Assembly: GCA_951406725.2 (NCBI GenBank) | Contig: OX597820.1 | Span: 44,020,001-44,084,000 of the forward strand | DNA: 64,000 nt | Reading direction: 5' to 3' | DNA from: Octopus vulgaris | Taxonomy: Eukaryota | In this document: in pieces, positions 1,396-60,716 of the stretch | How positions within the stretch are numbered: the first letter of the stretch is position 1 | How the letters are laid out: every line of letters begins with the position of its first letter | Translations under genes and position numbers: made by a program | The notes under the pieces: model-generated | Databases searched by the model: none | Told to the model about the DNA's origin: nothing | What the model saw: the letters and a program-made list of their open reading frames with translations, nothing else

Positions 1396-1804
1396 ATCTG
1401 TAGAACAAAAGGACATGTCACAAAAAAAAAAAAAGGATTTCAGTACACATTCTTTTTCAGTACATGAAATTGGGAAAAAGGGCAGTATTCATGGCTTTCG
1501 AATATCAATGATATTGATGCCATTTAATTCATGTTTCTCGTGCACTTTTTAAAGTCAACATCTGCAGGAAAGATATGAACAGGGACTGAGTTTTAGAGGC
1601 TGGACGATCGTAAATAACACACTCTCCAAGCTGTAATGAGTACTCACTTTTTCCGTAAAATTTGAATGCGTATGCGTGTGGATATGTGTATCTGTGTCTG
1701 TGTCTGTGTCTGTGTATGGGTATGTGTGCGTGCGTGTGCGTGGGTGTATGTATTTGCATGTGTGTGTGTGTGGGTGTGTTTGTCTTTATATATACTTACA
1801 TACG

Positions 1805-2351
1805 TGGCAGAAACGTAAGCACGCCGGGCGAAATGCGTACCCGTATTTCGTCTGCCGCTACGTTCTGAGATAAATTAAGTACCAGTTATGCACTGGGGTC
1901 GATGTAATCGTTTTAATCCGTTTGTCTGTTCTTGATTGTCCCCTCTGTGCTTATCCCCTTGTAGGTAGTAAAGAAATAGAAATAGGTATTTCGTCTGCGG
2001 TTACGTTCTGAGTTCAAATTTCGCCGAGGTCGACTTTGCCTTTCATCCCTTCGGGATCGATAAATTAAGGACCAGTTACGCACTGGGGTCGATGTAATCG
2101 ACTTAATCCGTGTGTCTGTCCTTGTTTGTCCCCTCTGTGTTTAGCCCCTTGTGAGTAGTAAAGAAGTAGGTATTTCGTCTGCGGTTACGTTCTGAGTTCA
2201 AATTCCGCCGAGGTCGACTTTGCCGTTCATCCTTTCGGGGTCGATAAATTAAGTACCAGTTACGCACTGGGGTCGATATAATCGACTTAATCCATTTGTC
2301 TGTCCTTGTTTGTCCCCTCTGTGTTTAGCCCCTTGTGGGTAGTAAAGAAAT
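1805..2351 (+). mobile_element. SINE family A head plus three head-to-tail body+tail-A units (period about 184 bp)
   Basis: Head TGGCAGAAACGTAAGCAC, B-box-like GAGTTCAAATTCC, core GCCTTTCATCCTTTCGGGGTCGATAAATTAAGTACCAG. Units restart at GGTATTTCGTCTG near 1985 and 2169. Confidence 0.9.
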
Positions 2352-3629
2352 ATATATATATACTTACATATAAATTACAGTCAAGCATTAATTGACAAAT
2401 CACTCACTACCTTAAAATGGAATACCATGTATGTTGCATCTTAATAATGAAAATGTTGAAAGTGAATAAACTAGCTTGTTTTAGTGCATCTACTTTCAAA
2501 ACACATTGCTCACCGACGGATGCATAAAAAGTGTAAGAAAACCCTTTAAAAAAAATACGGTAGCTTAATTTAATCAGAAACTTATGTTACTGTCAGTATA
2601 TTCCGTGTAAAATCTACACGTACAAATGTGTGTGTATACAGTGTACGGTTATGTTATTGGTAGGATCGTAGGATCAACAAGAAAAGTGTCTAGTGAGAAA
2701 TAAATATCATTAAGTAAACACACGATTTAAATGTCAGCTACTATAAGTTTCATACTCGGATTGTACAATAACCAAGCAAGGATTTAAAGCGTGACATATA
2801 CTATCCTGCAATGGCGGTGGATCAAAATAAACATGTCCGATTATTGTACAATCTGCGTATGTAAACATATAGTAACACACATTTAAATCCTGTATGTGTG
2901 TGTATATATATACACCGACAGTGATACATGTATACATTTATATATACAGGCGTACATATATATCTGTGCTAGTGTACCTATGTGTCTACGTCCATATAAC
3001 ACTGAGAAGTAGGAAGAAATTGTTCGCGGATGTTTAACTGTTTTTACACGGGTATATACGCATGTTGAAACATTTTGCGAAATTGGTATTACATTGTGTT
3101 GAGATCTTTTTTTATATATGATACATATATATTATGAACCAGACCGTTCGTTTTAGTCATTAAAATAGCTTTTCACAGTAATTCTTTATTCCTTTTTTGT
3201 TTTTCCTTTATTTTCTCTATATTTCCATGCCTCATCTTTTAAAAAGCTTGAAAAAAAAAAAAAAAAAACGTCGGAAGTTTAACGTGGAATAATTTCAAAA
3301 GCAAGAAATCCGGTTTTAGGTTTTATGGTACGGATCCTTTCGCCGAAGATTAACTTAACTATAGATGTAAGGTCTAAAATGGTAAATAATTGATGCAAAG
3401 ACGAACATTCATCTCTTTTTGCCTGCTGCTGTCATATTAGCCATTGATGAGATACTCCACACAAAATCAGTAGTAACACTGACGATGTATTTCGCTGACA
3501 TATACTTATTTATTTATGTGATTAGTATTTCCTCTCTTTCTTTAACTTATCTCTGGCACAGTGGAATCTCATATATGCCTTTGTGTGTATGCATGTACGT
3601 ATATTTAACATATGTTCACATAATAGCGT

Positions 3630-5502: not shown

Positions 5503-5535
<33 letters not shown>

Positions 5536-5911
5536 GGTGCAGGAGTGGCTGTATGGTAGCTTGCTAACCAACCACATGGTTCCGGGTTCAATCCCACTGC
5601 GTGGCACCTTGGGCAAGTGTCTTCTGCTATAGCCCCGGACCGACCAATGCCCTGTGAGTGGATTTGGTAGACGGAAACTGAAAGAAGCCTGTCGTATATA
5701 TGTATATATATATATATGTGTGTGTGTGTTTGTGTGTCTGTGTTTGTCCCCCTAGCATTGCTTGACAACCAATGCTGGTGTGTTTACGTCCCCGTCACTT
5801 AGCGGTTCGGCAAAAGAGACTGATAGAATAAGTACTGAGCTTACAAAGAATAAGTCCCGGGGTCGATTTGCTCGACTAAAGGCGGTGCTCCAGACTGAAA
5901 CAAGTAAAAGA
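5536..5911 (+). mobile_element. SINE family B (tRNA-like head, CORE-like GTGGCACCTTGGGCAAGT, internal TA/TG tract)
   Basis: A/B-box-like head GTGGCTGTATGG...GGTTCAATCCC. About ten copies in the window, with tails ending ACTGAAACAAGTAAAAGA. Confidence 0.9.
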
Positions 5912-11182: not shown

Positions 11183-11570
11183 AGAATAATAAATAGGAGT
11201 TCTAAATCTTAGGAATCTAGTTGAAGGTTTGTGTTAGCGAAGTTAGTCTAAAGATACAAATTATGTTTAAAATAAGCAATAAACAAAGATGGAGTATAAG
11301 GTTTGTAGGAAAAGAAAAAAAAAAGCACCAATGCATTTAAGATATGTAATCTAGCGTTAAAGTTATAAATCCATGCATATATTAATGTTCCTCTATGTCT
11401 TGATGGAGAAACCGTCAACACTGTCTTTCTTATATATTTTTCTCTATGTTTGATAAAATAAATTGAAATAGAAATACCAAAACTGTCGTTATTATGTATT
11501 TCACAATGTACTTGTTCTTTTAAGGTTATCTAAACAACGACATCACGTGTCAATATCTCATTGTTGTTTA

Positions 11571-12119
11571 AGGCGGCGATCTGACAGAATTGTTAGCACG
11601 CCGGGCGAAATGCTTTGCGGTATTTCGTCTGCGTTACGTTGTGAGTTCAAATTCCGCCGAGGTCGACTTTGCCTTTCATCCTTTCGGGGTCGATAAATTA
11701 AGTACCAGTTACGCACTGGGGTCGATGTAATCGACTTAATACCTATGTCTGTCCTTGTTTGTCCCCTCTGTGTTTAGCCCCTTGTGGGTAATAAAGAAAT
11801 AGGTATTTCGTCTGCCGCTACGTTCTGAGTTCAAATTCCGCCGAGGTCGACTTTGCCCTTCATCCTTTTGGGGTCGATTAAATAAGTACCAGTTACGCAC
11901 TGGGGTCGATGTAATCGACTTAATACCTATGTATGTCCCTGTTTGTCCCCTCTATGTTTAGCCCCTTAGCGTTCTGAGTTCAAATTCCGCCGAAGTGAAC
12001 TTTACCTTTCATCCTTTCGGGGTCGATAAATTAAGTATCCGATGAGCGCTGAGGTCGATATAATCTACTATCCCTAACCCTCAAAATTTCAGGCTTTGTG
12101 CCCAGAAGTAGAAAAGAAT
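11571..12119 (+). mobile_element. SINE family A array: head, two tail-A units, then a final body with a different tail (tail B)
   Basis: Junction AATAAAGAAATA|GGTATTTCGTCTG at 11802. The last unit ends CAAAATTTCAGGCTTTGTGCCCAGAAGTAGAAAAG. Confidence 0.9.
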
Positions 12120-14240
12120 ATGTCATTATTGTTTAATTCCAAGTTATCTGATCGGACACACAAAGAATGAAAGGCCCTCTGGCCGTGACCATCTTGTCTT
12201 TGTATATATACATGTGTGTGTGTGACTACATTGTCCAGCATATCTTTTCTTTTTTAAATGACAGGGTGTCATTCGAGGGGTACTTAGATCTTATTTCCAG
12301 TGAGTCGAATAACCGCGTAAAAAATCCACATTAACTCGACTGGTTATTTATATTCTTGTTATTTGAAATATGAAAGTCTATATTTACGGAGAGAAAATGC
12401 TTTCAGAATATTCGACAGTTCCATTGAAATGAACTATGTAACAATGAAATAAAGCTTACACAAATTTCAATGAATTTTGTAGCTGTTGGTCTATAATGCG
12501 AATCTAGGCTGCTTTTCTGTTGGTATTTTCTTCCAACCCATATAAGATACAGTAAAATGGCCGAATGTCAAGGCGTTAGAGCGTTGGATATAATGCGTTG
12601 AGATATGTCTTCAGATTGTTTATATTCTGATTTCAAATCACACCGACTTCAAATTTACCTTTCATTCTTCCAGAGTCAATAATAAAAGGTACCATCCCAA
12701 CAGTGGTACAGCATTTTCTCTTCTTCTAGCTTCTACATCCTTGATATTCCACTGAATCAAACTAGTAGGGAAAGGCCGGGAGGGTGTCACTGTTTGTACG
12801 CAGATACATTGGGCAAATAAAATAACTTAAAGCCTGATGCATTCTACAAAGTTGTACACAATCGCGTGAATGGTGGCCTTCGTTATAAGATCAAGTATTA
12901 TTCTCGCCAAATACACTACTCCTTTCCTGTTGATCCAGCAAATATAGAAACAAACAACAACGTATTGATGAAGGATGTAAGTAGATCACATGTACAACGG
13001 TTACCTATCTACTATCTGTTCTGTCTCCCACATTGAGATATTACCAGCGGAAAGGAAATGAAATGGTTTCAACTAAGAACATCGTTGAAAAACGATGGTA
13101 AGAAATGATAAAAAAGGACAAACGTGTTCTTTCTTTACATTTGTATCAGGCAAAAGTATTTTTTCTTCTATTATCTATATAAAAAAAAGTCTACAATGTA
13201 AAGCATGGAGTAAAGGTTCGATATAAATAAAAGGTAGACCTCATTCTTGGTTAAGAATTCAAACTTCGAAGCTGTCTGCCCTCATTTCCCACAATAAACA
13301 TTCTATTAAACAATGAAGAGGTTGACTAGGAACTTGAATAATTCTAGAATACAACAGATGTTGATTTCATCCAATTTTAAGGGATTTTTGCCTGTGATTT
13401 CATCCAATTTTAATGGGTTTTGCCTGTGAAAAACATGTAAATGTTGATAAATACGTCCAGCTTGGTATATGAAGGTGTCTCTGATTACACCTTTGTATCA
13501 CTTTCTTTCCTTTCTCATTATGTTTTTGCACAATTTAACTTTAACTTATATTCACCAATTGTACATGAGCACATGAGCTTTACCTATGAGATATATTAAT
13601 GATATCGAAACATGCATCTGTGGATATCGAAAAAGAAGCAAAAAAATAGAGCAGAACATTTGTTTTAACTCCGTGTTTTACATTGAATAAATATTAATAA
13701 CAGATGATAGGAGAAAATATTACTTTCGTAAATTCGGTTTAGAGTATCAAACTTTAACTGGAATCAAAAGATCACACAATGCTTTCTATGAAACAGTAAT
13801 AGCTTCACCATCGGAACGTAAAATATAAACTGTTCTACTACACAATGGAAAGAGGTAGATATGTCATGAGAGTGATAAAATAATACAAAATGAACGACAA
13901 GCAAAGCTCTTAACCACCCAGCACGCTCGTAGCTGCACATGCACACACACACATACATACATACATACATACATACATACATACATACATACATACATAC
14001 ATACATACATACATGCATGCATGCATGCATGCATAGACACATACACACACCCTGCGATGGACTCCAAACAATGGTGAAACACACGTAGGAACTTTAGTAT
14101 AAACTTGTGTTTATCCTTATTTCTCCAACGTTTGCTCTGTATCTCATAACTAGTATTTTTACTCAGTATACAAGTTGCTCAGACTAGTTTATTAGAATTC
14201 ATGTAGACCTCTGACAAAACTGTAGCAGCCTTACATTATA

Positions 14241-16495: not shown

Positions 16496-17033
16496 CAAAA
16501 ACAACCCTTTCTTTATTAGTCACAAGAGGCTACAGATACGAAACATGTCGTACAAATGTGTTACAAAAAGATGTGGAACTGTACACACATATACACGACG
16601 TGGCGTGACCAAGCAATACAATATAATAAAGGCAGGTTAAACACTAGGTGCACAAAACAAATGCAAATAAGGGCAAACCACAAGCACTGAGCAGAGAAAC
16701 TTCTCATAAGTAGGGTCACGGTACAGCAGGACGCTGAAAACCTTCGGCTCCGATTGTGTTTTACGATCTATTGGCCTCGTGCGTGCCCATGAGCATATTC
16801 AGTCTTAACCGATTCGTCAAGAGCTCCAGGTACTCTAGAGGATCTTGGTCCTTAAGCTGTCAATAAATCACTCTTTTACTCTTTTGTTTGTATATATATA
16901 TATGTATATATATATATATGTATATATGTATATATATATATAGGGAGAGTTTACGAAAAAAACAAAAGACAAAGACAGGTGGTGTACAAAACAAACTGAT
17001 GTATTAGTATAACGCTCAGGAATAAAAAAAAGT

Positions 17034-17403: not shown

Positions 17404-17455
17404 CTTGTGAGTGGATTTAGTAGGCGGAAACTGAAAGACGCCCGTTGTATATATG

Positions 17456-17545
<90 letters not shown>

Positions 17546-17720
17546 CGTGTGTCCCAGCATCACTTGACAACCGATGCTGGTGAGTTTACGTCCCCGTAAC
17601 TTAGCGGTTCGGCAAAAGAGACCGATAGAATGAGCTCTGGGGTCGATTTGCTCGACTATAAAGGCGGTGCTCCAGCATGGCCGCAGTCAAATAACTGAAG
17701 CAAGTAAAAGAGTAAAAGAG
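17404..17720 (+). mobile_element. SINE family B, 5'-truncated
   Basis: Matches 5654-5911 and 41650-41985. Confidence 0.88.
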
Positions 17721-17742
17721 TATATGCATATACATATGTATG

Positions 17743-17919: not shown

Positions 17920-17930
17920 AGAGCATTGTT

Positions 17931-19065
17931 ATACACGGTGGATTATGGAAAAGGCAAGAGAATACCAAAAGAAGCTGTACATGTGTTTCATCGATTACTC
18001 CAAAGCCTTTGACAGCATTGATCATGACAAGTTATGGAAATGTCTGAAGGAAAAGAGAACACCTTTACACCTTGTTTAGTTTATTAGATCACTCTATCAA
18101 AACCAAGAAGCTACAGTACGGACACTATATGGCGACACTGATTGGTTTGAGATTGGAAAAGGCACTCGGCAAGGTTGCATCCTGTCACCAGCAGCCTTCA
18201 ACATGTACGCTGAAAAGGTCATGAGGAATGCAGGCCTGGAGGATAGCAGCATTGGAGTGAGGATTGGAGGAAGAAATATTAATAACCTTCGCTATACAGA
18301 TGTTACAACCCTGCTGGCAGAGAGTGGTAAGTGTCTGGAGGATCTTGTCCTACTGGTCAAGAGAGTGAGAAATTTGGGCTGTACCTCAATGTTAAGAAAA
18401 CAAAGATCATGTCAACAGCAGCCACAACAAACATCAGCATCAAGATCGATAATGAAGAGATTGAAGTGGTTGATGATTTCATCTTCCTTGGCTCCAAAAT
18501 AAATAGAGATGATGACTGCACTCCAGAAATAAGACGGCGGATAGCACTAGGCAGAGAGGCAATGGTCAGCATGAGCAGAGTCTGGAAGAGTAGAGACATC
18601 AGACTCGCTACCAAATGCAGATTGGTGAATGCAATTGTCTTCCCAATAGCAAAATATGGATTCGAGACCTGGACACTAAAGAAAGCTGACCAGAAGAGAA
18701 TTAATGCATTCGAGCTTTGGTCTTGGAGAAGACTTTTACGGATTCCATGGACAGCAAGGCTCACCAAGGGAGAAGTTCTTAAGCAGATAAGGCCGAAAAT
18801 GTCGCTAGAAGCTAGGATCACCAAGCATAGATTGGAATATTTCGGTCATATTATGCGGAGAAAATCCCCGGAGAACGACATCATGCTCGGAATGGTCAGT
18901 GGCAAGAGAGGAAGAGGCCGACCAAGAAGCCGCTGGCTTGACACCATCAAGAATGATACCGGAATGGACATAGCCAATCTGAAAGAAGCGGCCCAGGATA
19001 GAACTGACTGGAGGACACTGATCCAATGAGTGACCGAGAGTCGACTTCGACTGAGCGGATAGAGA
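17931..19065 (+). mobile_element. RTE-clade (BovB-like) LINE, 5'-truncated, RT to 3' end, frameshifted
   Basis: [34 protein letters not shown] (decayed YADD), GLYLNVKKTKIM, AFELWSWRRLLRIPWT, YFGHIMR, GKRGRGRPRSRWLD, short 3' UTR. Confidence 0.95.
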
Positions 19066-21179: not shown

Positions 21180-21392
21180 GGTAGTCAATCATCGGTCTCG
21201 ATTTATGACTATAAAGATGGCTCATGAGCGCAGCTTTACTGAGGCAGGGTCTTGCACAGACATTGTATGTCAGTGTCATAGGAAGACCCTTACCGTCAGG
21301 AAGTGCAACAGGGATGCCCTTCCTGGCATCGCTCCTTACTTTCTCATGCGCAAATCGAGATTTCTCAAAAGTAGCTGATGCCTCATGCACAA
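21180..21392 (-). mobile_element. RTE-type LINE 3' fragment with terminal C2H2-like finger
   Basis: IVHEASATFEKSR...RSDARK...YNVCARPCLSKAALMSHLYSH resembles the C..C.R.C.S..GL.SH..H end of some RTE ORFs. Confidence 0.6.
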
Positions 21393-22429
21393 TTCTTAAC
21401 CAAGGCATCCCTAAACCTCCCTTTAAAGTCTTTTGACAGCAGGCAGAGCGTTTCACAAGTGGCGACCTCCCCTTCCACAAAAAGCTAAAGAACTGTCTCT
21501 TTAACCTGATCAACTACGAATCTAATACAACCTGTTCTGTTTGAATTAACAGGTGTACCGTGTGGCCGGTCCAATTTGCCTTTTGTGAAACGCTAGCATG
21601 AAGTATTATCTCATCTACCCTATCTGCCAGGACTGCCGCCAGCAAACACATAGGGTCGACTTGAGATGGGACCTTTGGTATTCGTATTTTGGATGTCCTC
21701 ATACCCATGTATATTGGTATTAAAATCACATCTTCTGTTTCCAAAGATTTTACCGTGCAATTGTGTACCGAATTTTTTCCCTCTGGCTAGATATCTTATA
21801 TCCTGCCAGTTGGGCTTTAGACATTTTTCTACCTTCTCCTCGCTTACTCGCTAGATTTTTCTTTCTTTTCGGCAGGATGTGTTTTAAATATAATTGTTTT
21901 TTTCTTCTCTGTCAATAAAAGCTCTTCTGCGGGTTGAACCTTGAACCTTGACAACGTCGTCTTGAATTTTTACCATGTCCTTGTACATTAAAACGTCACT
22001 TTTCTTCGTCGACAGTTGGCGAGTTCTGTCTCCAGTTGCAGACGCAAAACTTCTTTCCTGTTTACCCTCCTCCGTTTGAAATCCTTTAACTTCGATGCTC
22101 TTCCCTGCAACGTCAGTCCTCGACAGTGGCGGGAATTCGCTCTCAGACGAATCCGTAACATCTTCCAACAATGCTCTTTCCACTTTTCTGGCCTCCAAAT
22201 CTGTCGAATCCTCGTCATATAAATACACACTTTTTGGCATCCTGCCAGTAATTAGTGTTTCCCCTACAGGGAAAAACACACAATAAATTGCAAGCAAAAA
22301 CTATTATACAAATTTTAACAGCAATTAAAACAGGCAGCAACACGGAAGCAATCAACAGAAACTACACTTACTATACAGACGCACTTCGGCAACAATACCA
22401 ACACTTCCAACTCACACAGACGCAATACC
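21393..22429 (-). mobile_element. Tx1/L1-clade LINE copy 1 (5' UTR, decayed ORF1, deletion into a short ORF2 piece)
   Basis: ORF1 remnant EARKVERALLEDVTDSSESEFPPL...IPIYMGMRT is homologous to copy 2. ORF2 piece FLWKGRSPLVKR..CCQK.LKGGLGMPWL is about 90% identical by eye to 23520-23645. Confidence 0.85.
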
Positions 22430-25400
22430 AATTTCTTTATTGCCCACCGGGGGGCCAAACATAGAAATGGACAGAACAACTGATGGGATCAGTGAAGTGA
22501 TATGATTTTACATATAATATGACTTCAAAACTTTTAATACAATAGAAAAAAATGGAATGGAACAAACAATAGAAAAACAAAACAAATGAAGTGATGATCA
22601 GGCCACACTCCGACCACACAAGCCACGATCTACCGCTGGTACTTTTATTTTCTTATTTTTTCCGTCTATTCACACGGTTCTTTGCACGCACACCACTCGT
22701 GCTACATGCTTCCATCTCTTTTGGAACGTACACTCCGACAGACATCTCTTCACCAGCCACAGTTTCCTTTTCAAATGAAAAGAAAAAAATGATCGTAAAT
22801 TGTGGCCAGAGATAAAGTTGCCTGTCTTAATTCATTTTTATCCTAGTCTTCCTTACTGCATCTTTCGCTATTGCTACAACCGTGAGAAAACAATTCTTAC
22901 GATCGTTCGTTAAAACTCCCGGTGGGTCAAGTTTTATAATTCACTCAGTTGACAGCTGTACTCTTCCTTCGCCGGACAACAGGTATTCAGCATAAGCCCA
23001 CATTTCAGTTATCTCCAGACACTGAACAATAGTGTGAGGGACGGTTTCCCTGTCCCCCACCCCGCCCCGGCATCTTGGACAGGTCGGCGACTGACGCTTA
23101 CCATGTCTTGCGAGCTTATCCCAAACGGGCAAGGAACCTCTGTAGCATTGCCAGGTTAAGGACTTTTGGAAGTTGTCCAACCTTCTCAACCCGAATGTAC
23201 GGTGAAACAGGCTGTCCAGTTGAATAAACCCGAGACCTAGAGTCACACCTAGGCCATCGTCACATTCAGACTCTACCAACCCACTATATAAAATCCGTGT
23301 GGAACCCCCACCTCTGGCGTTGCCCGAGCGCCGGTATAGCAAGAGGCCCTTACGGCACTCTTTATGCCACTCACTCGACCTCGGTCTACGAGAACACCAG
23401 GCTTCCTGATCGCAAAAGTTTTGAACTCGGGGAAGATTTGTCTGGCCAGCGGAAAACACACTCGTCCACAATCCAGGAGAATCCAGAGGTGCCTCAACCT
23501 CAACGCATGTCTGAGCATTATTAACCAAGGCATCCCTAAACCTCCCTTTAAAGGCTTTTGACAGCAGACACAGCGTTTCACAAGTGGCGACCTGCCCTTC
23601 CACAAAAAGCGAAAGAGCTGTCTCTCATACCTGATCAACCACGAATCCGGAGAGGGCAGGACGGTCAGGCGGTAGGTAATGACAGATGCGATAAACACAT
23701 TTACCACGTCCGCCCTCCCTTTCAGGGATAGACACCGCCAAGACCAGGTCTTGACTACTGCAGCCACCCTGATCAATATCTCCGTCCAGTTCATCTCTAT
23801 CTGGAGGCCTGGTCCAAACCAAACTCCCAGCAACTTAACCGGTCCCTCCGCCCAGCGCCCAACAACGCTGTCTAAAGGCATCAACTTGCCAACCTAGGTG
23901 CCGAGCTGCAAGTCGACCGACTTTTCCCGGTTAATCTTTGCTCCTGCCACCTCCTCGTAAGCCTCAATAGTTTTACCCACCTCACGTAGGCTTGCTACCG
24001 AGGTTACGCTGATTGTGATATCATCCGCGTAAGCCGTAACAAACTCATCTACACCTGGTTCTCTCGGGATGCCACTCAACCTTCGCAGTAGGGACTCGAG
24101 AGCCATTATATACAAAAGTGGTGAGAGCGGACATCCTTGACGAACCGAGCGTCTGATGCAGAGCGGCTTCGAAACGAAACCGTTCACCCGAACTATCGAG
24201 TCAATGTTGTGGTACAAAGCGATAAACCACCTGAGGAAGCTAAGGCCTTGGCCGAACCGCGCAAGCACACTCGCCAGGTATAGATGGTCAACCCAATCAA
24301 AAACTTTAGACTGGTCTAAAATGTACCAATACCCCACCTTTGCCAGATTTATTACCAACCCTCTATGGTATAGCGAATAAGATGGAGGGTATCCTGAATG
24401 GTTCTGCCTGAGATGGCACATGTTTGTGCCTCCCCGATTATACCATTCGCGACGCGTGCCAACCTTTTTGCTAAGACCTTGGCCAAAATCTTCACTTCTG
24501 TATTTAACAGAGTGATGGGCCTGAAATTCTCTATAACATCCCCCTTGTCCGGGTCCTTTCTGACAAACGTCACTACTCCCCAGCGCACAGATCTGGGGAT
24601 TAACCCATTCTGTTGCCAGTTCGCGTACATGTCAGCCAGTAGTTGCCCGAACAAGTCTGACATACATTTATACAGCTCGTACGGAAGACCATCATGTCCC
24701 GGCGACTTACCCGCTTTACAGTCGGCCAAAGCCTCCATCACCTCCACGGGCGTGATTGGCCCTTCGCAAGACTCCGCATCCGACCCCGAGAGGCACGGCA
24801 ACCCAGCAGCCCGGCAGCCGGCCACACTGGAAACATCGTGGTTTACGCCCCTCAACAAAAATATTTAGAACTTCCTCCCCTACTTCCCCGATTTCTGGGA
24901 GCTGTTCTCATTCCCATGTAAATTGAGATTAACATTGTGTCTTCCGGCTCTAAAAATTTTAGAGTATTTTTGTCCCGTTTCTGCATTCTTGAACCTCACC
25001 ACGATGGTTCCAAACTTCTTTCCTCTGGCTAGATATGTAATGTTCTGCCAGATGGGTTTTCAATTTTTTGCTCACATATTTTATCAATTTTACAAGCTTC
25101 TAAGCAGAATGTCTTAAAAATAATGATTTTCTTTTTTTCCTCTGTTAATTCTTCTTCTGGTATTTCCACTTTTACTATTCCATCTCGTTCCGTTATCATA
25201 TCTTTATAGTTTAATAATTATTTTATGTCAGTTGACAGCAGTCGCGTTCCACCACCAGCCGCTAGCGCAAAAATGTCTTTCTTTATTTTGGATGGTCCTT
25301 TCTTCGGTCTTTCTTTTCGTGTTCGTAACTCTTGGTAATGCCGGAAATTCGCTTTCCGACACATCAGAAACGTTATCAAAAATTAAGCTTTCTATTTTCT

Positions 25401-25630
25401 TTGCTTCTCGCTCAATCGATGATTCGTCCCCCGACGAAGACGAACTTTTCAGCATCTTGCCAGCAATTAATATTTTCCCCCACAGGGGAAACCCCAGAGA
25501 GCTTTCGAAAGGAAACTATGCTACAACAATTTTTTTTAACAATAAGTCCAACAATAGGCACAACAAGAGATATAACAATTAACAGAAACTTACGAACACA
25601 CTCCAACAATAAATTTTCGGTAACACACGT
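22430..25630 (-). mobile_element. Tx1/L1-clade LINE copy 2 (both ends present, endonuclease region deleted, frameshifted)
   Basis: KSPGHDGLPYELY, FRPITLLNTEVKILAKVLAKRL, LDQSKVFD.VDH, VRQGCPLSPLLY, AYADDIT, LSLKGR, GGLGMP, CPRC...ETVPH..VQC, FQKRW. 3' UTR ends GTGGGCAATAAAGAAATT. Confidence 0.93.
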
Positions 25631-25688
25631 ACGAAATATCGCTAAGCATTTCGCCCGACGTGCTAACGATTCTGCCAGCTCGCCGCCC
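25631..25688 (-). mobile_element. SINE family A head, cut off at the Tx1 5' junction
   Basis: Minus strand GGCGGCGAGCTGGCAGAATCGTTAGCACGTCGGGCGAAATGCTTAGCGATATTTCGT, then Tx1 sequence. Confidence 0.9.
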
Positions 25689-28156: not shown

Positions 28157-28284
28157 ATCAGAATGGACATTTAATATTCTATCATTTCGTTATATTCTCG
28201 TATCTAATATAACATCACTATAAGTTTGTGAATAAAACGTAAAAATCAAAGTTGGAATTTCTTTGAGTAATATATATATATATA

Positions 28285-28640
28285 TTCTTTCATTTGTTTC
28301 AGTCATTTGACTGCGGCCATGTTGGAGCACCGCCTTTTGTCGAACAAACCGACCCCAGGACTTATTCTTTGTAAACCTAGTACCTACTCTATCGGTTACT
28401 TTTGCCGAACAACTAACTTACGGGAGAGTAAACACACCAACATCGGTTGTCAAGAGATGGTGGGGGGACAAACACAGACACACAAACATATATGACGGGC
28501 TTCTTTCAGTTTCCGTCTACGAAATCCACTCACAATGCTTTGGTCCACCTGAGGTTATAGTAGAAGACACTTGCCGAAGGTACCACACAGTGGGACTGAA
28601 CACGGAACCATGTGGTTAGTAAACAATCTACTTACCATAG
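28285..28640 (-). mobile_element. SINE family B
   Basis: Reverse complement of the family B sequence. Confidence 0.88.
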
Positions 28641-29385: not shown

Positions 29386-30215
29386 CACGCACACTCACAT
29401 GTGCATACATTCGTATATATATGCGTGCGAATATGAGGTTCCAAGTAAACATGCATATATGTATGTTTTTATACGTGTAATGCTTTTCGATGTTTACCTT
29501 TCACCGAACGCTGTAAAAATTGTAAAATGGTGCTTTAAAACCCATTCCTTGTGGTATTTGTTTCATCCCAGTTCCGCAGACAATCGCTCGCCATTATCCC
29601 CATTTTAAATGCAGTAAACCAATGATTGGCTCGTTAAGACCCTATAACCAACGAGATGGTTGCTTTTTTTACCAAACGCTCTATCAATAAGGAAAATAAT
29701 AAATATCAAGATCTGGTGAATTGCAATAACTTCCATTGTTACAAAACTGGTGAAATAGACAATTAGAGAAAAAGAAAAACACGATGAGATCATAAGTATA
29801 TTTTTTTTTTCTTAGAAAAAGAAATTATGAAGTTGTCTCAAAGAAAAGCATCAGAGATTCTTTTTTCACTTACTAAATTATCGAAATATGTATAAGTGTG
29901 ATGAAAGATGGTGAAGAGCATATAAGTTGTATAACTTCGTAAAACACCTGCGGAAGAATTAAAGCATCGCTATGTCTTTCTCAATGGCCAAAATGTCGCG
30001 AAAAAAAACGTCATTATACTGATCTTTATGATATTTAAATGCTAGTATTTTTAAGTTTATTTTGTAATTGTTTGATATGCTTGTTTTTTTTCAGTTTTCC
30101 GGGTATTTTTTTTTTTTACTTTTAGAATTCTAAAAATCAACTGACATAAAAAAAAGTGTTGCTAATAGTTCGTTCTCATTCTACCGCTATTTTCCATTTC
30201 TTTGTCATTATTCTT

Positions 30216-30603
30216 CTCTTTTACTCTTTTACTTGTTTCAGTCATTTGACTGCGGCCATGCTGGAGCACCGCCTTTTAGTCGAGCAAATCGACCCCGGGA
30301 CTTATTCTTTGTAAGCCCAGTACTTATTCTATCGGTCTCTTTTGCCGAACCGCTAAGTAACGGGGACGTAAACACACCAGGATCGGTTGTCAAGCAATAC
30401 TATGGGGACAAACACATATATACATATATATACATATATACGACAGGCTTCTTTCAGTTTCTGTCTGCCAAATCCATTCACAAGGCATTCGTCGGTCCGG
30501 GGCTTTTGCAGAAGACACTTGCCCAAGATGCCGCGCAGTGGCACTGAACCCGGAACCATGTGGTTGGGTAGCAAGCTATTTACCACACAGCCACTCCTGC
30601 GCC
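30216..30603 (-). mobile_element. SINE family B, full length
   Basis: Head GGCGCAGGAGTGGCTGTGTGG through tail (GTAAAAGA)n. Confidence 0.92.
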
Positions 30604-31264
30604 ATTATACTTATTCTTTTTTTTTCCTGTTTTGTTTATTTCTGCTATTGGGGACGTTGCTGTTGTTACTGTAGCTGTTACTGCTTTTCCTGCCACTGCT
30701 GCGATTTCCTACAACTATTGTTGTCCATTCACTAACGAAGGACCGTCTGCGTGTTCGCTCAACATGCTTAAAAAATTGTATCCAAAACTCTTCCTTAAAT
30801 GATACTCACCTCCTACCACCATTTTTCTAAACAAGTGTAGAAGAATACATTGACTGAGAGTTTCTCAAGGGGAAACTCAAGAGTGACAGGTAGGCTGCGG
30901 CAGCGTCTGGTGGGACATGGAGTTTTGGAATGGGACGTAAATAAGTAACATATATAAAACTTGCAATAAAGATTTTACTAAAACTATGCATGTATGTATG
31001 TGTATATATATATATGCATATATGTGCATATATGCATACATATGTGTATATATACATACATATGCGTATATATACATACATATGTGCATATATACATGCA
31101 TATGTGTATGTATATATATATACATATATATATGCATATACATAAACATATTTATATATATATATATATACATACATATATACAAACACACACATATATA
31201 TATATATATATAGATATATATAATATACATACATTTTTATATATACTTATATACACACACACAC

Positions 31265-39239: not shown

Positions 39240-39874
39240 AGTGCTCCATAGAGAGTGCTTTTACGCCAACAAAGATATTAGCAAATTCAAAACGATTTCT
39301 TGCTCATTTTCGCACCGAGGCGTGTTATACTGCCGAAATGTTACGCTGAAATGATTGTTGTCTCGTCTGTCTGAAGCTGGCCGTTCTGCCGACCTCCCTG
39401 AACAGGGAGGAGCGAGCCTGTTTTCTCTTGGTAGTTGCTGTTGTGAAAGAGATAGTATGGAAGACGAGAGTGAAAGGAATTGCAACGGGCATATTCATCT
39501 CCAGTCTCGAGCTAATCAACTTTTTCGTTTTCCACATGAAACGGAAAATAAGGCTGGAAAAGAAATGCCTATTGCAAAGAGTGTTTCGTAAAAGATGGAA
39601 GTCTATAGCAAATATGTTGCGAGGAAAGAACCTGTTTAAACGAGAATATAAAAAGGAGAAAGCAAAGTCTTCAGTGTGAGTATGTGGTTTGTGGGGTCGA
39701 CCGCGTCCTCCGCTTCATTTTTTATAAATCACTCATTCTCATTTAATTGTATATATTTTAATTGTTTGTTTATTCATACGTTTCGTCTCATTCGATACCC
39801 TGACCCCAATGTTTGTTTTCTCTGTCCTCGTATCGTCCCCTCTTTTTCTCAACCTCATGGTTAATAAAGAAATT
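39240..39874 (+). mobile_element. Tx1/L1-clade LINE 3' fragment (third copy, diverged)
   Basis: VVAVVKEIVWKTRVKGIATGIFISSLELINFFVFHMKRKIRLEKKCLLQRVFRKRWK aligns with the copy 2 C-terminus VVAIAKDAVRKTRIK..KTGNFISG...HLKRKL...FQKRWK. Ends AATAAAGAAATT. Confidence 0.8.
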
Positions 39875-40276: not shown

Positions 40277-40658
40277 GGAAGCACTCCGTCGGTTACGACA
40301 ACGAGGGTTCCGGTTGATCCGAATCAACGGAACAGCCTGCTCGTGAAATTAACGTGTAAGTGGCTGAGCACTCCACAGACACGTGTACCCTTAACGTAGT
40401 TCTCGGGGATATTCAGCATGACACAGAGTGTGACAAGGCCGGCCCTTTGAAATACAGGTACAACAGAAACAGGAAGTAAGAGTGAGAGAAAGTTGTGGTG
40501 AAAGAGTACAGCAGGGACCACTACAATCCCCTGCCGGAGCATCGTGGAGCTTTAGGTGTTTTCGCTCAATAAACACTCACAACGCCTGGTCTGGGAATCG
40601 AAACCGCGATCCTATGACCGCGAGTCCGCTGCCCTAACCACTGGGCCATTGCGCCTCC
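40277..40658 (-). mobile_element. SINE family C, full length
   Basis: tRNA-like head GGAGGCGCAATGGCCCAGTGGTTAGGGCAGCGGACTCGCGGTC...GGTTTCGATTCCC; second copy at 1092. Confidence 0.9.
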
Positions 40659-41312: not shown

Positions 41313-41531
41313 TTTCTCTAGTCTCCTATTTTCCACCCGTTTCGCTGTCTATCTGTTGTACTGTTGTGTGGTAGGTTAGCATATAAATGCATATTGGGCA
41401 TTCCATTATGAAAGACATGGTATGACTATTTTAGAAAGAAAGGGAAAATTTACAGTTTACAAGGAATAAAATTCCTTTTCTAAAGTTTATAAAGAATAAA
41501 ATATAATAAAATATAATAAAATATAATAATA

Positions 41532-41696
41532 GGCGCAGGAGTGGCTGTGTGGTAAGAGGCTTGTTTACCAACCACATGGTTCCGGGTTCAGTCCCACTGC
41601 GTGGCACCTTGGGCAAGTGTCTTTTACTATAGCCTCGGGCCGACCAAAGCCTTGTGAGTGGATTTGGTAGATGGAAACTGAAAGAAGCCCGTCATA

Positions 41697-41766
<70 letters not shown>

Positions 41767-41995
41767 CGTGTGTGTGTGTTTGTGTGTCTGTGTTTGTCCC
41801 CCTAGCATTGCTTGACAACCGATGCTGGTGTGCTTATGTCCCGTTACTTAGCGGTTCGGTAAAAGAGACCGATAGAATAAGTACTGGGCTTACAAAAGAA
41901 TAAGTCTCGGGGTCGAGTTGCTCGATTAAAGGCGGTGCTCCTGCATGGCCGCAGTCAAATGACTGAAACAAGTAAAAGAGTAAAGAGAGTAAAGA
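41532..41995 (+). mobile_element. SINE family B, full length
   Basis: Same structure as the other copies. Confidence 0.92.
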
Positions 41996-43570: not shown

Positions 43571-43986
43571 TGGTGAAATTAAAATTAAGGATGTTATTAG
43601 GGGATTGGATCGTATTATTATTGTTGTTGTTGTTTTATTATTATTATTGCTATTACTGTTATTAGTAATAGTAATGTTTTTATTATTAATTATATTAGTA
43701 TTAGTAGTAGTGGTGGTAGTGGTCGTATTAGAGTTATTAATATTAGTATTAATGGTGTTGCTATTAGTATCTAAATGAGTTGAGATACTGGTTCTGCCTT
43801 TATTTTTGATTTTTCTTCTAATATAATATATACCTGCTATAACGAAACCCTGATACGGATCCCTTGATCCAGCCTTTGCTGTGGTCTTGAAACCCATCGG
43901 TCGACGAACTATAGCGCTTACTCAACGTACTATTCGTGTAGAAGTGAACTAAACTCCTTATTATATATATATATATATATATACAC

Positions 43987-44140
43987 GTTAGGCTTCTTTT
44001 AGGTTCGGTCTCCCAAATCCACTCACAAGGCGTTGGTTGGCCCGAGGCTATAGTAGAAGACACTTCCTCAAGGTGCCACGCAGTGGGACTGAACCCCGAG
44101 CTATGTGCTTGGAAAACAAATATCTTCCCACACAGCCACG
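43987..44140 (-). mobile_element. SINE family B 5' half
   Basis: Head and CORE-like region on the minus strand. Confidence 0.85.
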
Positions 44141-51984: not shown

Positions 51985-52047
51985 TTTACAGATAGATAAA
52001 TGCAAATTAAGCAGCTGATGTTGGATTAATTTTAATAATTAAACATA

Positions 52048-52449
52048 GGCGCAGGAGTGGCTGTATGGTAAGTAGCTTGCTTACCAACCACATGGTTCTG
52101 GGTTCAGACCCACTACGTGGCACCTTGGACAAGTGTCTTCTACTATAGCTTCGGGCCGACCAAAGCCTTGTGAGTGGATTTGGTAGACGGAAATTTAATG
52201 AAGCCAGTCGTATATATGTATACATATGTGTGTGCTTGTTTATGTGTGTTTGTGTGTCTGTGTTCGTCCCCCAACATCGCTTGACAACCAATGCTGGTGT
52301 GTTTACATTCCCGTAACTTAGCGGTTCGGCAAAAGAGACCGATAGAATAAGTACTAGGCTTACAAAGAATAAGTCCTGGCGTCGATTTGCTCGACTAATG
52401 GCGGTGCTCTAGCTTGGCCGCATTCAAATGACTGAAACAAGTAAAAGAC
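52048..52449 (+). mobile_element. SINE family B, full length
   Basis: Same structure as the other copies. Confidence 0.92.
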
Positions 52450-52874
52450 ATAAAAGAGAATTGAAACCTTCCCCGTCGCCAACGTCCTTACTACGTCCAT
52501 GTGATTGTACCCATTTCATCGTCTTCGTAGGAACAAAATGCAAAAGTTAATCTCTAGTTAATGTGAACTCAAACTTTAAAAGGACGAATAAAAAATATTT
52601 CAATACGGCTCTCTACCTAACAACTCACCGGTCTCATAACTTGAGTGATCCATGGAGTCCTCATGTGGCAGCGGCTATCCTGCTTGAAAATGCATCTCTC
52701 TCAAATCACATTCTGCTACCTTAAGTGAAGCAAGGAAGTACAAGATATTGTATTGCTATTAATAGACCACTGAAAACAAATAAAAAAAGCCAGAATCGTA
52801 GCTGTTGGAATTTTTGTTCTCAAGAGTTCTCAATCAAGATTTACCTGAAGTTAAATACTTCAAATAACAACAAT

Positions 52875-54632
52875 CCTTTCTACTATAAGCACAAGGTCTG
52901 GAATTTTGGGACAGGTGATAGTCGATTTCATCGACCCCCAGTGCTCAACTGGTACTTATTTTATCGACCCCAAAACAATAAAAGGCAAAATTGATCAGAG
53001 CGGATTTGAACTGAGAACATAAAGACGGACGAAATGACGCTAAGCACCTAGCTCGCCGCCTTAACGACAATAATAATAATATTCCTTTCTACTATAGGCA
53101 CAAGGCCTGAAATTTGGGGAGAGGCGATAGGTCGATTACATCGACCTCAGTGCGTAACAGGAGCTTAATATATCGACCCCGAAAAGATGAAAGACCTCGG
53201 CGGAATTTGAACTCAGAACGTAGCGGCAGACGAAATACCTATTTCTTTACTACCCACAAGGGACTAAACACAGAGGTGACGAACAAGGACAGACAAACGG
53301 ATTAAGTCGATTACATCGACCCCAGTGTGTAATTGGTACTTAATTTATCGACCCCGAAAGGATGAAAGACCATTTCAACCTCAGCGGAATTTGAACTAAG
53401 AACGTAACGGCAGACGAATTACCGCTAAGCATTTTGTCCAGCGTGCTAACGATTCGGCCATCTCGCCGCCTAATAATAGCAATAGCTTATAAAAGTAAAC
53501 CATACGTGATTGTGTATGTATTTGTGTACGTATCGGCGTTTACTGTATGTAAATATGAGTGAACATGTGTATTTCGTCTGTCTTTACGTACTGAATCGAA
53601 ATTCCGTTGAGGTCGACTTTGCCTTTCATTCTTTCGAGGTCGATAAATTAAGTACCAGTTGCGTACTGCGGTTGACCTAATCGACTGCTCCCCCCCCCCA
53701 CAAAAAAAATTCGAGCCTTGTGCTTTGAGTAGAAAAGATTATTCTACAAACTTTAATACCTGCCCGTATTAAGCCGGCGAGCTGGCAGACTCGTTAGCAA
53801 GCCGAGCGAAATGCTTTGCAGCATTTTGCACTTCCTTACACTCTGAGTTCAAATTCCGCCGTGGTCGTCTTTGCTTTTCATCCTTTCGGAGTCGATAAAA
53901 TAATAAATACCAGTTCAGCACTGAGGTCGATGTAATCGATTTACCACTTCCCCCAAAACTGGCTGCTCTAAGCCAAAATGCGAAACCAATATAAGCCTGA
54001 ATTTAGACAGCGAGATGGCAGTCGTTACCACGCCAGGCGAAATGCTTAGCGACATTTCGTCCAACTTTAGGGTCAGAGTTCAAATTCAGCCGAGGTCGAC
54101 ATTGCCTTTCATCCTTTTGGCGTCGATAAAATAATAAATACTAGTTGAGCCGGCGTGCTAACGATTCTGCCAGCTCACCGCCTAATAATAGCAAACCATA
54201 TGTGATTGTATATGTGTTTGTGGGCGTATCGGCGTTTACTGTATGTAAATATGAGTGAACATGTGTATTTCGTCTGTCTTTACGTACTGAATCGAAATTC
54301 CGTTGAGGTCGACTTTGCCTTTCATTCTTTCGAGGTCGATAAATTAAGTACCAGTTGCGTACCGGGGTCGATATAATCGACTTAATTCGTTTGTCTGTCC
54401 TTGTTTGTCCCTTCTGTGTTTAGCCCCTTGTGGGTAGTAAAGAAATAAGTATTTCGTCTGTTTCTACGTTCTGAGTTCAAATTCCGCCGTGGTCATCTAT
54501 TCCTCCCATCCTTTTGGAGTCGATAAAATAAGTACCAGCTGAACATTGTGAATAGGTGGGGGGGCAATGTAATCGAATTACTCCTCCCCCTCTCCCACGA
54601 AACTGCTAGCGTTGTACCAAATTTGGAAACCG
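52875..54632. mobile_element. Dense cluster of about 8 SINE family A units on both strands
   Basis: Minus units at 52875-53062 and 53080-53472 (tail-A junction about 53239). Plus units at 53568-53742, 53772-53990, 54010-54150 and 54265-54632 (tail-A junction about 54449). Confidence 0.88.
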
Positions 54633-55549
54633 ATATATGCCCGAATTATTAAAGAATTACTGCTGCCATTAGTTGTCGTTTTGCTGTTGTAGTAATTGTT
54701 GCTGATTTTTGCTGCTGTTGAACTCGAGATCTGGCCCCATCGAGTAGATCTATGATCATATTCGTTTTCTCAGTGAACCATTCCATTTTTATTTCGCAGT
54801 TATATATATATATATATGGCAGCATCCTCAAATGTGTTCTATATTTTCATGGTAGGGTGTGACTAGAGAGACATTCAGCTCCTACTGTTGTCAGGTTGAC
54901 TGACCGCTCCCAAGTTGGCTGCTTTGCCCCTTCGATGTTCTTATTAACGTTGACCACTCAGCTGTGATACTGCAGTTGTAATTATGATAATCTTCTACAG
55001 GTTTTATTAAACCATGAAGTGTAACACACTCGGCCGCATAAGCGTGCGGTATGGATTGAACGTTTGACCTTTAGGCCACGAAGGCCCAGAGAGTTAACTG
55101 ATCAGGCAAAACGTCTCCGATGGAGAGTGAAGAAGGGAGTAGAAAGAGAAGGAAAAAAGGGGGAAAAGAAAACAGTGTATAGTTACATAAAAACCTCCGG
55201 AAGAAAAAAAAAAGAAGAAAAAACATAATAGCTTCAGACCATGCGCTTGACATTCATGGTTTCTTAACTCCATGGAGACAATGGACAGAGGAGGAAGATG
55301 ATTTTGTTTTTGTTTAGTTATTTATTTATTTTATAATTACTTCGAAGGAACTGAATCAAAGATCGGGGTGCGCGTGCGTGTGTATGTGCGTGTGTGCACG
55401 CGTGCATGTGTGTGTGCACGCGTGTATGTGTGTGTGTGTATGTGTGTATATGCGTGTGTATGTGTGTGCGTACGTGCGTGTGTATATGCATATGTGTATG
55501 TGTGTTTGTGTGTGTATGTGTGTGTGTGTGTATGTGTGTGCGTACGTGC

Positions 55550-55595: not shown

Positions 55596-57264
55596 TATGT
55601 GGTGAGTGAGGGTAGGGTTAATATCTTGTTTAGATTTTGCACTCCTGTAGATATTGCCCAGCAGCTACTGTCTTCTTGTGCCGGTAGTGAATGGCATTTA
55701 GAAGTGGGCGGAATGGATTTGGGTAGCGGTGAGAGACAGAACAGAGTTGGCGTGAGTGTGGGCAGGGCAGGGGAGAGGCGGCTGGAATGGTGCTGCCAAA
55801 GGATGCGCGTCTCCATCCTACCAACCAGAATAGGTCGGACCCGGTCATTTTGATAATACAATGACTCATGTTTGGAACCGGATAAATGATGGCTGAGTAG
55901 AAGGCAAGAACAATGTGTAACGTAGAATTGTGTGGCGGCATTGGCGGCAATGGTGGGATGGCAGCGGCGGTGGTGATGGTGATGGTGATGGTGATGGTAT
56001 TGGTGGCGGCAATGGTGGGAGAAAATACTGCAAGCAAGGGAGATAAGAATGGAAGCAGGTGGGGAGAATGGGGAAAAAAAGAGAAGGAAATGGTTTTTAA
56101 AATGGTAGAGAGGAAGGAAGGAGTGCAATGAGATGAAAAGAAGCAGGATGAAAAAGAACATGAATGGCGAAGAACGAAATGTGAGAAAAGAAGCCAGACG
56201 GAGAAGAGGCTGAGAGAAAAGGTGAGCGTTAGGGGGGTGATGTGGGGATACAGTGGAACGAGAGGACAGATAAAAGAAGGGTGAATGAGAGGAAAATATA
56301 TTGACGAAGGAGAGAGAGAAAGTTGAATGGTATTATTTGAAATTCTGTAGAAGAGGAATTAGTAAACGTAAAGGAAAATAGGAAGAGGCAGTAAATGATG
56401 AGCGAGGTATTAAGTCACACATGTAAAAGGAAAGTCATGTTTACGGAGACATAAGTGAAAGTGGCTTTAAGTAGGAATCGAAACCGTGTTATACACATGC
56501 TATTGCACCTTGTCAGTCACTACTCAAAAGTAATGCAAAGTTATTGCTTCTGAAACCGAAACAATAACTTTCTAACGTAACTTCTTGCCCATTTTGTGAT
56601 GGGAAAATGGCGAATTCACACGTTTACCCGTTAATTTTATTTCTTACTGGGGCACAAAGGCTCAAATGTAATAGACGGGTTTAATCTATTAGATTGCTTA
56701 CAGTATTCAATCAACTGATGTTGTGTTATCGACAACGGAAGCGTGAAAGTAATAGTTGACCTTCGCAGAATTTGAACTCAAACGCAAATTTTGTCAAAAT
56801 ATTCTTTTTCTATAGGCACAAGGCTTAAAATATTGGGGGAGTGAGGTCAGTCGATTACATGAACCCTTGTAATTAACTGGTACTTATTTTATTGACTAGA
56901 AAAGAATGAAAGGTTAAAGTGACCTCGGCGATATTTGAAATCAAAACGTAAAGAACTAGAAAAGTGCCACAAAGCACTTAAGCATTTTATCCCTTGTGTT
57001 AACGAACCTGCCAGTACACCTTATTAATTTTGTCAAAATATTAGTTTCAAAGTTTGGAACAAGGCCAGCAATTTCGGACGAGCGGCTGTCGTCTGTCTTG
57101 GTGCACAATTTCTATTCTCACGCTATCACTGAGGTTTGATACAATTTCTAACAGACATACAAAATGACAATTATTTCCTTTTTTATAAGGATAGAGACAG
57201 TCAATAATATTGCTCCAGGATTTGATTAGTATTTATTTTAATGATAGCAAAAGGATAAAAAGTA

Positions 57265-57622
57265 AAAGGCCTGAAATTTTGGGGGAGGGTACCAGTCGAT
57301 TAGGTCGACCCCAGTATGGAACTGAATTTATCGACCCCGAATGGGTGAAAGGCAAAGTCGAGAATGTAAAGACAGACGAAATACCTATTTCTATTTCTTT
57401 ACAACCCACAAGGGGCTAAACACAGAGAGGACAAACAAGGACAGACAAACGGATTAAGACGATTATATCGATCCCACTGCGTAACTGGTACTTATTTAAT
57501 TGACCCCGAAAGGATGAAAGGCGAAGTCGACCTCGGCGGAATTTGAACTCAGAACGTAACGGCAGACGAAATACTGCTAAGCATATTGCCCGGCGTGCTA
57601 ACGTTTATGCCAACTCGCCGCC
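57265..57622 (-). mobile_element. SINE family A: head, tail-A unit, then body with tail B
   Basis: Minus-strand junction GTAAAGAAATAGAAATA|GGTATTTCGTCTG at about 57385. Confidence 0.88.
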
Positions 57623-57803
57623 TATATATTATGATGTATCATATACATTATAATATAGGTAGTTATAGAAATTAAAAGCCAAAACCGTAAAATACATAAA
57701 TAAGGGTGCAATTGCTTGAAATAGGAGCTAAAATATTCGAGTTATATTTTTTAGCTTCTACTTCTAGCAATTGCAGGTGCTGTTTGCGCCCTTATATATA
57801 CAT

Positions 57804-58397: not shown

Positions 58398-58437
58398 TAC
58401 ATACATATATATGTATATATGTACATATATGCATGTA

Positions 58438-60137: not shown

Positions 60138-60292
60138 TATATATACACATACACACACACACACACACATATATATATACATATACATATACACACACAT
60201 ATATATATATATGTTACAGGAATGTAAACACACCAACACCGGCTGTCAAGCAATGGTGGTGGGGACAAACACAGACACAAAGACACACACGC

Positions 60293-60367
<75 letters not shown>

Positions 60368-60423
60368 CACTTGCGTCAGAAATTAATTACCGCACGAAGT
60401 TCAGTATAATATTGTATATACAG

Positions 60424-60623
60424 GAAAACAGGCTTGAAATCGAAAAATTAGAAATGGCAGTCAAGAATGCTTATTTCTATCAAAGTTGGACTCGGGCATG
60501 ACAGACCCTGTAATTCACATATGCAAAACACTGTCATGTCATGCCCGGAGTCCAACTTTGATAGAAATAAGCATTCTTGACTGCCATTTCTATTTTTCGG
60601 TATGCGTCAAGCAACCTGTTTTC
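60424..60623. repeat. Inverted repeat, about 80-bp arms, core nearly perfect
   Basis: TAGAAATGGCAGTCAAGAATGCTTATTTCTATCAAAGTTGGACTC is mirrored exactly on the other arm. Confidence 0.92.
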
Positions 60624-60635
60624 TGTCCCTTTTTT

Positions 60636-60700
<65 letters not shown>

Positions 60701-60716
60701 TATATATATATATATA

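Follow-up and report, generated by a model that had tools for sequence, protein, structure and literature searches.

In a stretch of 64,000 nucleotides of Octopus vulgaris DNA (assembly GCA_951406725.2, contig OX597820.1, positions 44,020,001 to 44,084,000 of the forward strand; called the window below) we studied a short interspersed element (SINE), SINE-A. The form of this SINE that ends in tail A, one of its three 3' tails, probably inserts at one fixed nucleotide of its own family, where it would be placed by the site-specific machinery of a long interspersed element (LINE) of L1/Tx1 type. Such targeted insertion is also the likely source of the head-to-tail junctions at which tail A of one unit runs into the inner motif of the next. 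Evidence was found in the tail-motif junctions themselves, in LINE copies at the same site, in the similarity of tail A to LINE 3' ends, and in downstream halves that are older than the units in front of them and of mixed type.

The window is repeat-rich animal DNA and contains about 20 clear copies of the SINE-A body, which are short, non-coding and interspersed. In a full copy, a head of about 50 nt is followed by the 13-nt motif GGTATTTCGTCTG, then by a body of about 118 nt and finally by tail A, B or C. The motif is flanked on either side by what we take to be A-box-like and B-box-like parts. Retrotransposition is marked by target site duplications (TSDs) and 5' truncation, with a perfect 16-bp TSD and a truncated head at 1805 and a TSD of 18/20 matching positions at 11571. 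Clear TSDs among the 12 elements searched were those of arrays 1 and 2, listed below, plus a 17-bp repeat at 56799-57014. A tRNA-derived head, as in SINE2 elements, is only putative: no tRNA genes were found in the window with ARAGORN and no matches with Rfam, and the fold of one SINE head gave z=-1.9. Tail A is present in seven complete copies and one partial copy (11921-11967), in the following loci.

1787..1802, plus strand: left TSD of array 1, 16/16 identical to 2355-2370
1805..1842, plus strand: 5'-truncated head of array 1, which we take to be the A-box-like part; E=1.7e-14 with a head profile that includes this copy, 5/38 positions differing from the majority
1843..1984, plus strand: array 1 unit 1, motif, body with a 47-nt deletion, and tail A with AGAAAT doubled
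1985..2168, plus strand: array 1 unit 2, headless, with motif, body and tail A
2169..2352, plus strand: array 1 unit 3, headless, with motif, body and tail A, ending at (TA)n and the TSD
2355..2370, plus strand: right TSD of array 1 (16 bp)
11552..12136, plus strand: array 2, with TSD (18/20), head 11571-11618, units 11619-11801 and 11802-11967 (tail A cut short), older body with tail B 11968-12121, and TSD
53078..53471, minus strand: head 53471-53424, tail-A unit 53423-53240, older body with tail B 53239-53078
54265..54636, plus strand: chimeric tail-A unit 54265-54447, then older body with tail C 54448-54636
57266..57623, minus strand: head 57623-57576, tail-A unit 57575-57386 (AGAAAT doubled), older deleted body with cut tail B 57385-57266

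Array 1 is thus a truncated head followed by three units with a period of 184, all enclosed by the perfect 16-bp TSD. As the element that ends in tail A has its own TSD, tail A functions as a 3' end. No inner head was found in any array. Two of the loci lie in a dense cluster (52874-54636) of about eight SINE-A copies in both orientations, which includes an old partial duplication (53438-53666 / 54150-54362) holding a 138-bp identical tract. At 53569 a headless SINE copy begins exactly at the motif.

Six of the seven complete tail-A copies stand directly before the motif, five of them with 0 mismatches and one with 1; in two cases an extra AGAAAT comes first. The sequence GTATTTCGTCTG starts at 1986, 2170, 11803 and 54449 on the plus strand and at 53238 and 57384 on the minus strand (leftmost bases 53227 and 57373). 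These sites agree within one base with those listed in an earlier note on this DNA (1985, 2169, 11802, 53239, 54449 and 57385), and the exception named there was also recovered, as the tail A that ends at 2351 runs into (TA)n without a motif. The note had further asked if tails B and C precede the motif equally often, and they do not: the motif followed 0 of the 11 recognisable B/C tails within -5 to +30 nt, the best matches there having 5-8 of 13 positions mismatched, in comparison to 6/7 for tail A (Fisher p=3.8e-4). The B/C count leaves out degenerate tail-less body matches, such as those at 7925, 12618, 25951, 36139, 44714, 45403, 56792 and 61288. The head-to-tail junctions are therefore confirmed within the window, and the junction is specific to tail A. 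Inverted repeats were also seen at the sites concerned. At 11600-11632 the target lies at the top of one within the head, and at the tail-motif junctions the tail end GAAATA and the following TATTTC again form an inverted repeat, so that the new junction mimics the original site.

The LINE copies of the window provided direct evidence of target specificity, since the LINE occupies the same SINE nucleotide as the tail-A units. The features concerned are these.

21352..22416, minus strand: LINE copy 1, with 5' untranslated region (UTR), start of open reading frame (ORF) 1 (ATG 22240), internal deletion and a short ORF2 piece (21513-21352); 3' end lost
22417..22429, minus strand: motif copy (1 mismatch) that separates LINE copy 2 (3' end) from copy 1 (5' end)
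22430..25627, minus strand: LINE copy 2, with 5' UTR, ORF1 start (ATG 25455), a deletion that removes the endonuclease, frameshifted reverse transcriptase (RT) and zinc finger, and a 3' tail ending AATAAAGAAATT
25628..25687, minus strand: SINE head and motif (3 mismatches) directly before LINE copy 2; head 25687-25641, E=3.8e-19 with a profile built without this copy
39389..39874, plus strand: LINE copy 3, a 5'-truncated 3' fragment with a tail-A-like tail and no motif behind it

LINE copy 2 lies in register behind a SINE head, and its 3' junction is base-identical to that of the SINE. LINE copy 1 begins at the motif copy behind the end of copy 2. The 5' ends of the two copies are homologous but diverged, with the ATG 185 and 189 nt behind the motif in copies 2 and 1, respectively. 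The motif was thus found at the start of the LINE in 2/3 copies of the window; copy 3 does not end on the motif. The layout suggests that one target took up two LINE insertions, the TSD being about 10-13 nt long. The earlier note had proposed that the SINE inherits the target specificity of the LINE, and this proposal is strengthened by the LINE copies at the same SINE nucleotide. Two further observations concern the copies themselves. The ORF2 piece of copy 1 at 21392-21522 is 91.6% identical to 23517-23647 of copy 2, and the 5' regions are only about 75-80% identical in short stretches; copy 1 may be chimeric. A possible decayed head at about 39320-39370, in front of LINE copy 3, was rejected, as the head profile gave no match there at E<=5.

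Based on its predicted RT, C-terminal zinc finger and two ORFs, the LINE is assigned to the L1 group. In copy 2 Pfam identified RVT_1 (E=2e-17) and zf-RVT (E=2e-5), and tblastn with homologues agreed. The RT is of the L1 group, as the best homologue (P0001) matches L1 ORF2p at 7e-43 versus R2 at 1e-22. The best protein relative of the window LINE is from Argonauta hians (56% identity), and many LINE homologues carry endonuclease, RT and zf-RVT together. No clade-labelled reference for Tx1 was present among the 89 homologue matches, and the LINE is called L1/Tx1-type with an assignment at the level of the L1 group only. In viral contigs the LINE protein had 0 matches.

Next, tail A was compared with the last 100 nt of LINE copy 2 (end 22431, minus strand) and copy 3 (end 39873, plus strand), using 3 of the 8 tail-A copies. 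The scores were 42-50 against both LINE ends in comparison to shuffled means of 16-18, and 0/2000 shuffles scored as high in all 6 tests. With the last 11 nt removed the p values were 0.0005-0.0055, and among 2556 tiles the best-scoring ones beyond the tail-A copies were the two LINE ends. Six B/C tails compared with both LINE ends gave p>0.15 in 11/12 tests and 0.012 in one. The resemblance of tail A to LINE 3' ends, as it had been claimed, is thus significant (p<=0.0005, shuffles), and tail A appears from these alignments to be homologous to the LINE 3' end, at family level only. Over the last 42 nt the identity was 62-73% (66-73% in the majority of copies), and the LINE copies are therefore relatives of the tail donor and not the donor. 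For two tail-A copies and both LINE ends, folding predicts a similar hairpin at the terminus, with z-scores of -1.1 to +0.4, and its covariation was not above that of shuffles (225/500).

The tails and their possible relatives gave some additional observations. Tails A, B and C all have a 4-bp hairpin with a (C/T)TTGT loop near the end (51962, 53104, 53717 and the tail-A copies), and 8 of the 9 GC-rich hairpins of this kind in the window fall in tails A/B/C. Tails B and C may have come from LINE ends that are related but have other targets; (TTA/TTG)n-like sequence flanks several B/C copies. At 16507-16860 (minus strand) an element with a tail-A-like end (p=0.0005-0.001, shuffles) is followed by (TTA)n and no motif. 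It gave a weak protein match to LINE homologues (E=0.001) and is possibly a fourth 5'-truncated L1/Tx1-type fragment.

The units in front of the junctions and the halves behind them differ in divergence. Bodies before tail A were 91.5% alike (15 pairs, leaving out the chimeric unit at 54265 and the deleted unit at 1843), the four downstream halves 77.6% alike (6 pairs) and seven solo copies 73% alike (21 pairs). The downstream halves diverge by 11-15% from the B/C majority, and the tail-A bodies by 1-8.5% from their own majority. Three downstream halves end in tail B and one in tail C, and they form no group in a body tree that is poorly resolved, with no starred branch. Judged by this divergence, the downstream halves are older than the units in front of them and of at least three types. 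In the three older hosts with a visible motif behind tail A, the motif had 0, 0 and 1 mismatches despite the 11-15% body divergence. All 8 unoccupied head-bearing copies examined had 3-7 motif mismatches, and a ninth solo copy (1 mismatch) is headless.

These results suggest the following course of events. At first, template switch or recombination would have given an older SINE with tail B or C a 3' end of LINE type, tail A. The LINE endonuclease would then nick the SINE at GC^GGTATTTCGTCTG (GC^GG), a point with the A-box-like part on one side and the B-box-like part on the other, with tail A as the start of reverse transcription. The cDNA would pair with the upstream target end, and the new copy would fuse in register and without a second head, giving head-body-tailA-body. 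Because the SINE RNA contains the target, its 5' end would join by homology and the units would be headless. With a motif left on both sides, each insertion would add to the sites available, and the head of the host would serve the new unit as promoter. Read-through multi-unit RNAs, local duplication or gene conversion would likely also shape the arrays, and some insertions would occur at non-motif sites.

A wider reading, which we put forward tentatively as a serious possibility, is that of a self-targeting SINE: its Tx1-type tail would make it a substrate of an endonuclease whose site lies inside the SINE itself, and with every insertion the head would be dropped, the host promoter taken over and one more site created. 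The resulting chain reaction would build head-to-tail arrays genome-wide by retrotransposition rather than recombination, and through it tail A would have become more common than any other young form of this octopod SINE, which is very abundant. The abundance was followed in three contig runs, labelled organisms B, C and D, where 146,990-378,519 contigs per run matched one unit. Tail-A depth was 0.58-0.70 of body depth in these runs, depth being no copy number, and tail A is accordingly not rare. The comparison covered 2169-2420, apart from 2338-2420, a repeat that includes the tail-motif joint. In the contigs heads precede the body and tail B follows it. The raw-read run X24 gave 12 reads only. 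Pattern scans found 0 matches in viral contigs and 0 in prokaryote genomes. The only match in metagenomes (L001) was rejected as a chance match, as it reads as bacterial coding DNA with no SINE around it.

Several points weigh against targeted insertion by the LINE machinery. The evidence comes from a single window and only five loci, of which two belong to the same SINE cluster. Array 1 as a whole sits within its single TSD at a TA-rich, non-motif site, and targeting is for this reason not strict. The motif intactness described above is a confounded comparison, because the unoccupied copies are also older (solo bodies 13-25% diverged). The tail of LINE copy 3 is equally similar to tail A, yet no motif comes after it, and no LINE of the window is more than 73% alike in the tail. 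A like terminal hairpin is also found in tails B and C. The endonuclease domain is kept by no LINE of the window, and the homologue alignments of copies 1 and 2 begin only with residue 423 of 1155. Behind LINE copy 1 the expected SINE body is absent.

The arrays themselves add to these points. In array 2, three tail changes are common to the units at 11620 and 11803, which group in the tree with support of 89/87 (not starred). The letters of this three-base variant made up 4.8%, 28% and 3.8% of depth in the contigs of run X2, and by this low depth it is a minor subfamily met twice side by side. In array 1 the units at 1986 and 2170 share a letter found at <=19%, and the unit that should be the founder, the last one, has changed least (1 versus 7 private, p=0.07) and looks the youngest. 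Variant sharing between neighbours exceeds the expectation for independent draws, in comparisons that were chosen after the alignment had been seen. At the locus 54265 the 5' part of the unit 54265-54447 falls inside a 138-bp exact local copy of 53529-53666 (53529/54225), and DNA-level copying therefore occurs. When the two are aligned, the second has tail A where the first has tail B, spacer and head, which fits an insertion joined by homology to an upstream body and also a later conversion.

It is against this background that another origin of the arrays has to be weighed, in which targeted insertion made the first junctions and the multi-unit arrays grew mainly at the DNA level, by unequal crossing-over or conversion, or as whole multi-unit RNAs, the register being kept automatically. 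The grouping in array 2, the single TSD around all of array 1 and the 138-bp copy speak for it. So does the lack of a run of four T in the units at 1986, 2170 and 11620, which makes multi-unit RNAs by read-through possible, and similar headless arrays in the blood clam have been ascribed to unequal recombination (PMC11481361). However, neighbours differ by 5-10% and unevenly: the upstream unit of array 2 has 1 private change and the next unit 8 (p=0.04), which is not what recent local duplication would give. The unit at 11803 has no derived change in common with the host body behind it. Minority variants are shared across loci, as the unit at 1843 shares variants, including the doubled AGAAAT, with the distant unit at 57574 and not with its neighbours, and the unit at 11803 also shares variants with the unit at 57574. 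The LINEs at the same site would be left unexplained, and we consider array growth of this kind rather unlikely as the main course. The arrays are probably of mixed histories, given the shared neighbour variants, the uneven private changes, the sharing across loci and the 138-bp copy. That every unit is an independent insertion, as the earlier note suggests, is not established. Of the outcome that the note names as refuting, locus-specific clades of units with variable breakpoints, one part is seen: the array 2 units group together and share a 4-5% variant, but breakpoints do not vary.

Quite improbable is a dimeric SINE family of the form head-body-tailA-body-tailB/C, arisen once or a few times and moved by the partner of tails B/C, with tail A as an inner linker. 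Dimeric SINEs are known (PMC10702118), and all of array 2 lies within its 18/20 TSD, with tail B at the end. The mixed older downstream halves, with their differing tails and greater divergence, together with the TSD-flanked element that ends in tail A at 2351, argue against a single dimeric family, and the LINEs have the same junction. That the tail likeness reflects low complexity by chance and a poly(A)-signal-like end, with the LINE at the site being coincidence or assembly error, is scarcely credible and largely refuted: tail A is T/G/C-rich, also matches a 23-nt piece of another SINE (E=0.009), and three other window sites score against it in shuffles, but its significance survives removal of the last 11 nt, two LINEs that have diverged from each other both begin at the motif and have the ATG equally spaced from it, and the units differ by 4-16% and are therefore not collapsed copies.

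Other repeats were also present in the window. Another SINE family, also abundant, contains an inner (TA)n(TG)n tract and was found at 5533-5893, 17404-17722, 28283-28637, 30214-30609, 41511-41991, 52045-52460, 43962-44139, 60908-61074 and 63287-63439. With its 3' part this family gave weak matches (E 0.04-0.5) to the body profile of SINE-A, in the 3' half. Two members of a third short repeat family (1105-1396 and 40311-40603) are 95% alike over 293 bp. At 17920-19060 (plus strand) lies a 5'-truncated LINE RT fragment of another clade, with about 28-32% identity to the L1/Tx1-type homologues, which we take to be RTE-like. At 58430-60900 a decayed transposase-like reading was seen on the minus strand, with terminal repeats identified by eye at about 58440, 60110, 60370, 60720 and 60890; this element presumably resembles Tc1/mariner.

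L1-Tx1 elements and abundant SINEs have been reported in octopuses (PMC8967140), and the present SINE family was not identified in the available parts of PMC4824008, PMC4758252 and PMC10294476. The SINE body may resemble the 66-bp Meta domain (MetaSINE); three short motifs and the name SepiaSINE2 were absent from what was searchable of two supplements of PMC4824008. In the L1 group few SINE-LINE pairs have a tail in common, and 3 are known (PMC3747384). The closest precedent is the crocodilian SINEU, which follows Tx1-Mar into Mariner-N4 and stacks in tandem (Kojima 2015, PMC4494074). As here, SINE and Tx1 LINE use a common target, which belongs to another interspersed repeat; a TSD lies between the insertions of a tandem, and transcription from the flanking target has been proposed. 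In contrast to the octopus SINE, SINEU targets a Mariner DNA transposon, has U1/U2-derived heads and a poly(A) end, and no LINE with a shared 3' end was found for it (PMC4494074). The octopus SINE has its target inside its own 5' part, a LINE-like tail and headless units. A fixed site in a multicopy sequence and tandem stacking are also known for other L1-group LINEs, namely Tx1L in Tx1D, Keno in U2 and Kibi/Koshi in microsatellites (PMC4494074). Unlike for these target-specific LINEs of the Tx1 clade, the target here is a SINE, and the likeness holds at the L1-group level only.

The tandem arrays of the blood clam Scapharca broughtonii have the form TSD1-(SINE)n-TSD1 (PMC11481361), and squamate SINE-derived satellites and SINE multimers have been reviewed (PMC10702118). 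Like the octopus arrays, they have a headed first unit, later units with the same head truncation and one outer TSD. Their inner tails are truncated, whereas in the octopus the tail of the inner units is complete and LINE-like, and the site is also occupied by a LINE. The term Tx1 is absent from the main text of the clam paper (PMC11481361). Our literature search, which did not extend to Repbase reports and most subscription papers, found no paper on a self-targeting SINE or on this octopod SINE/LINE pair. The parts that are new in comparison to SINEU/Tx1-Mar are the self-target and the shared tail. R2 retrotransposons join their 5' end by homology with a 28S co-transcript of their target (PMC4494074, discussion). 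As proposed for the octopus element, target-carrying RNA gives precise in-register 5' junctions and the host promoter is used. R2 is autonomous, uses a different endonuclease and destroys its target gene, whereas the octopus element would be its own target.

If a SINE indeed carries its own target, retrotransposition would offer interspersed repeats a way to become tandem arrays, for which recombination is the usual explanation. The finding also points to a LINE endonuclease with a recognition site of 13 nt or longer. A SINE of this kind would account for the splitting or merging of these copies in repeat annotation, and would itself follow a safe-harbour strategy with positive feedback.
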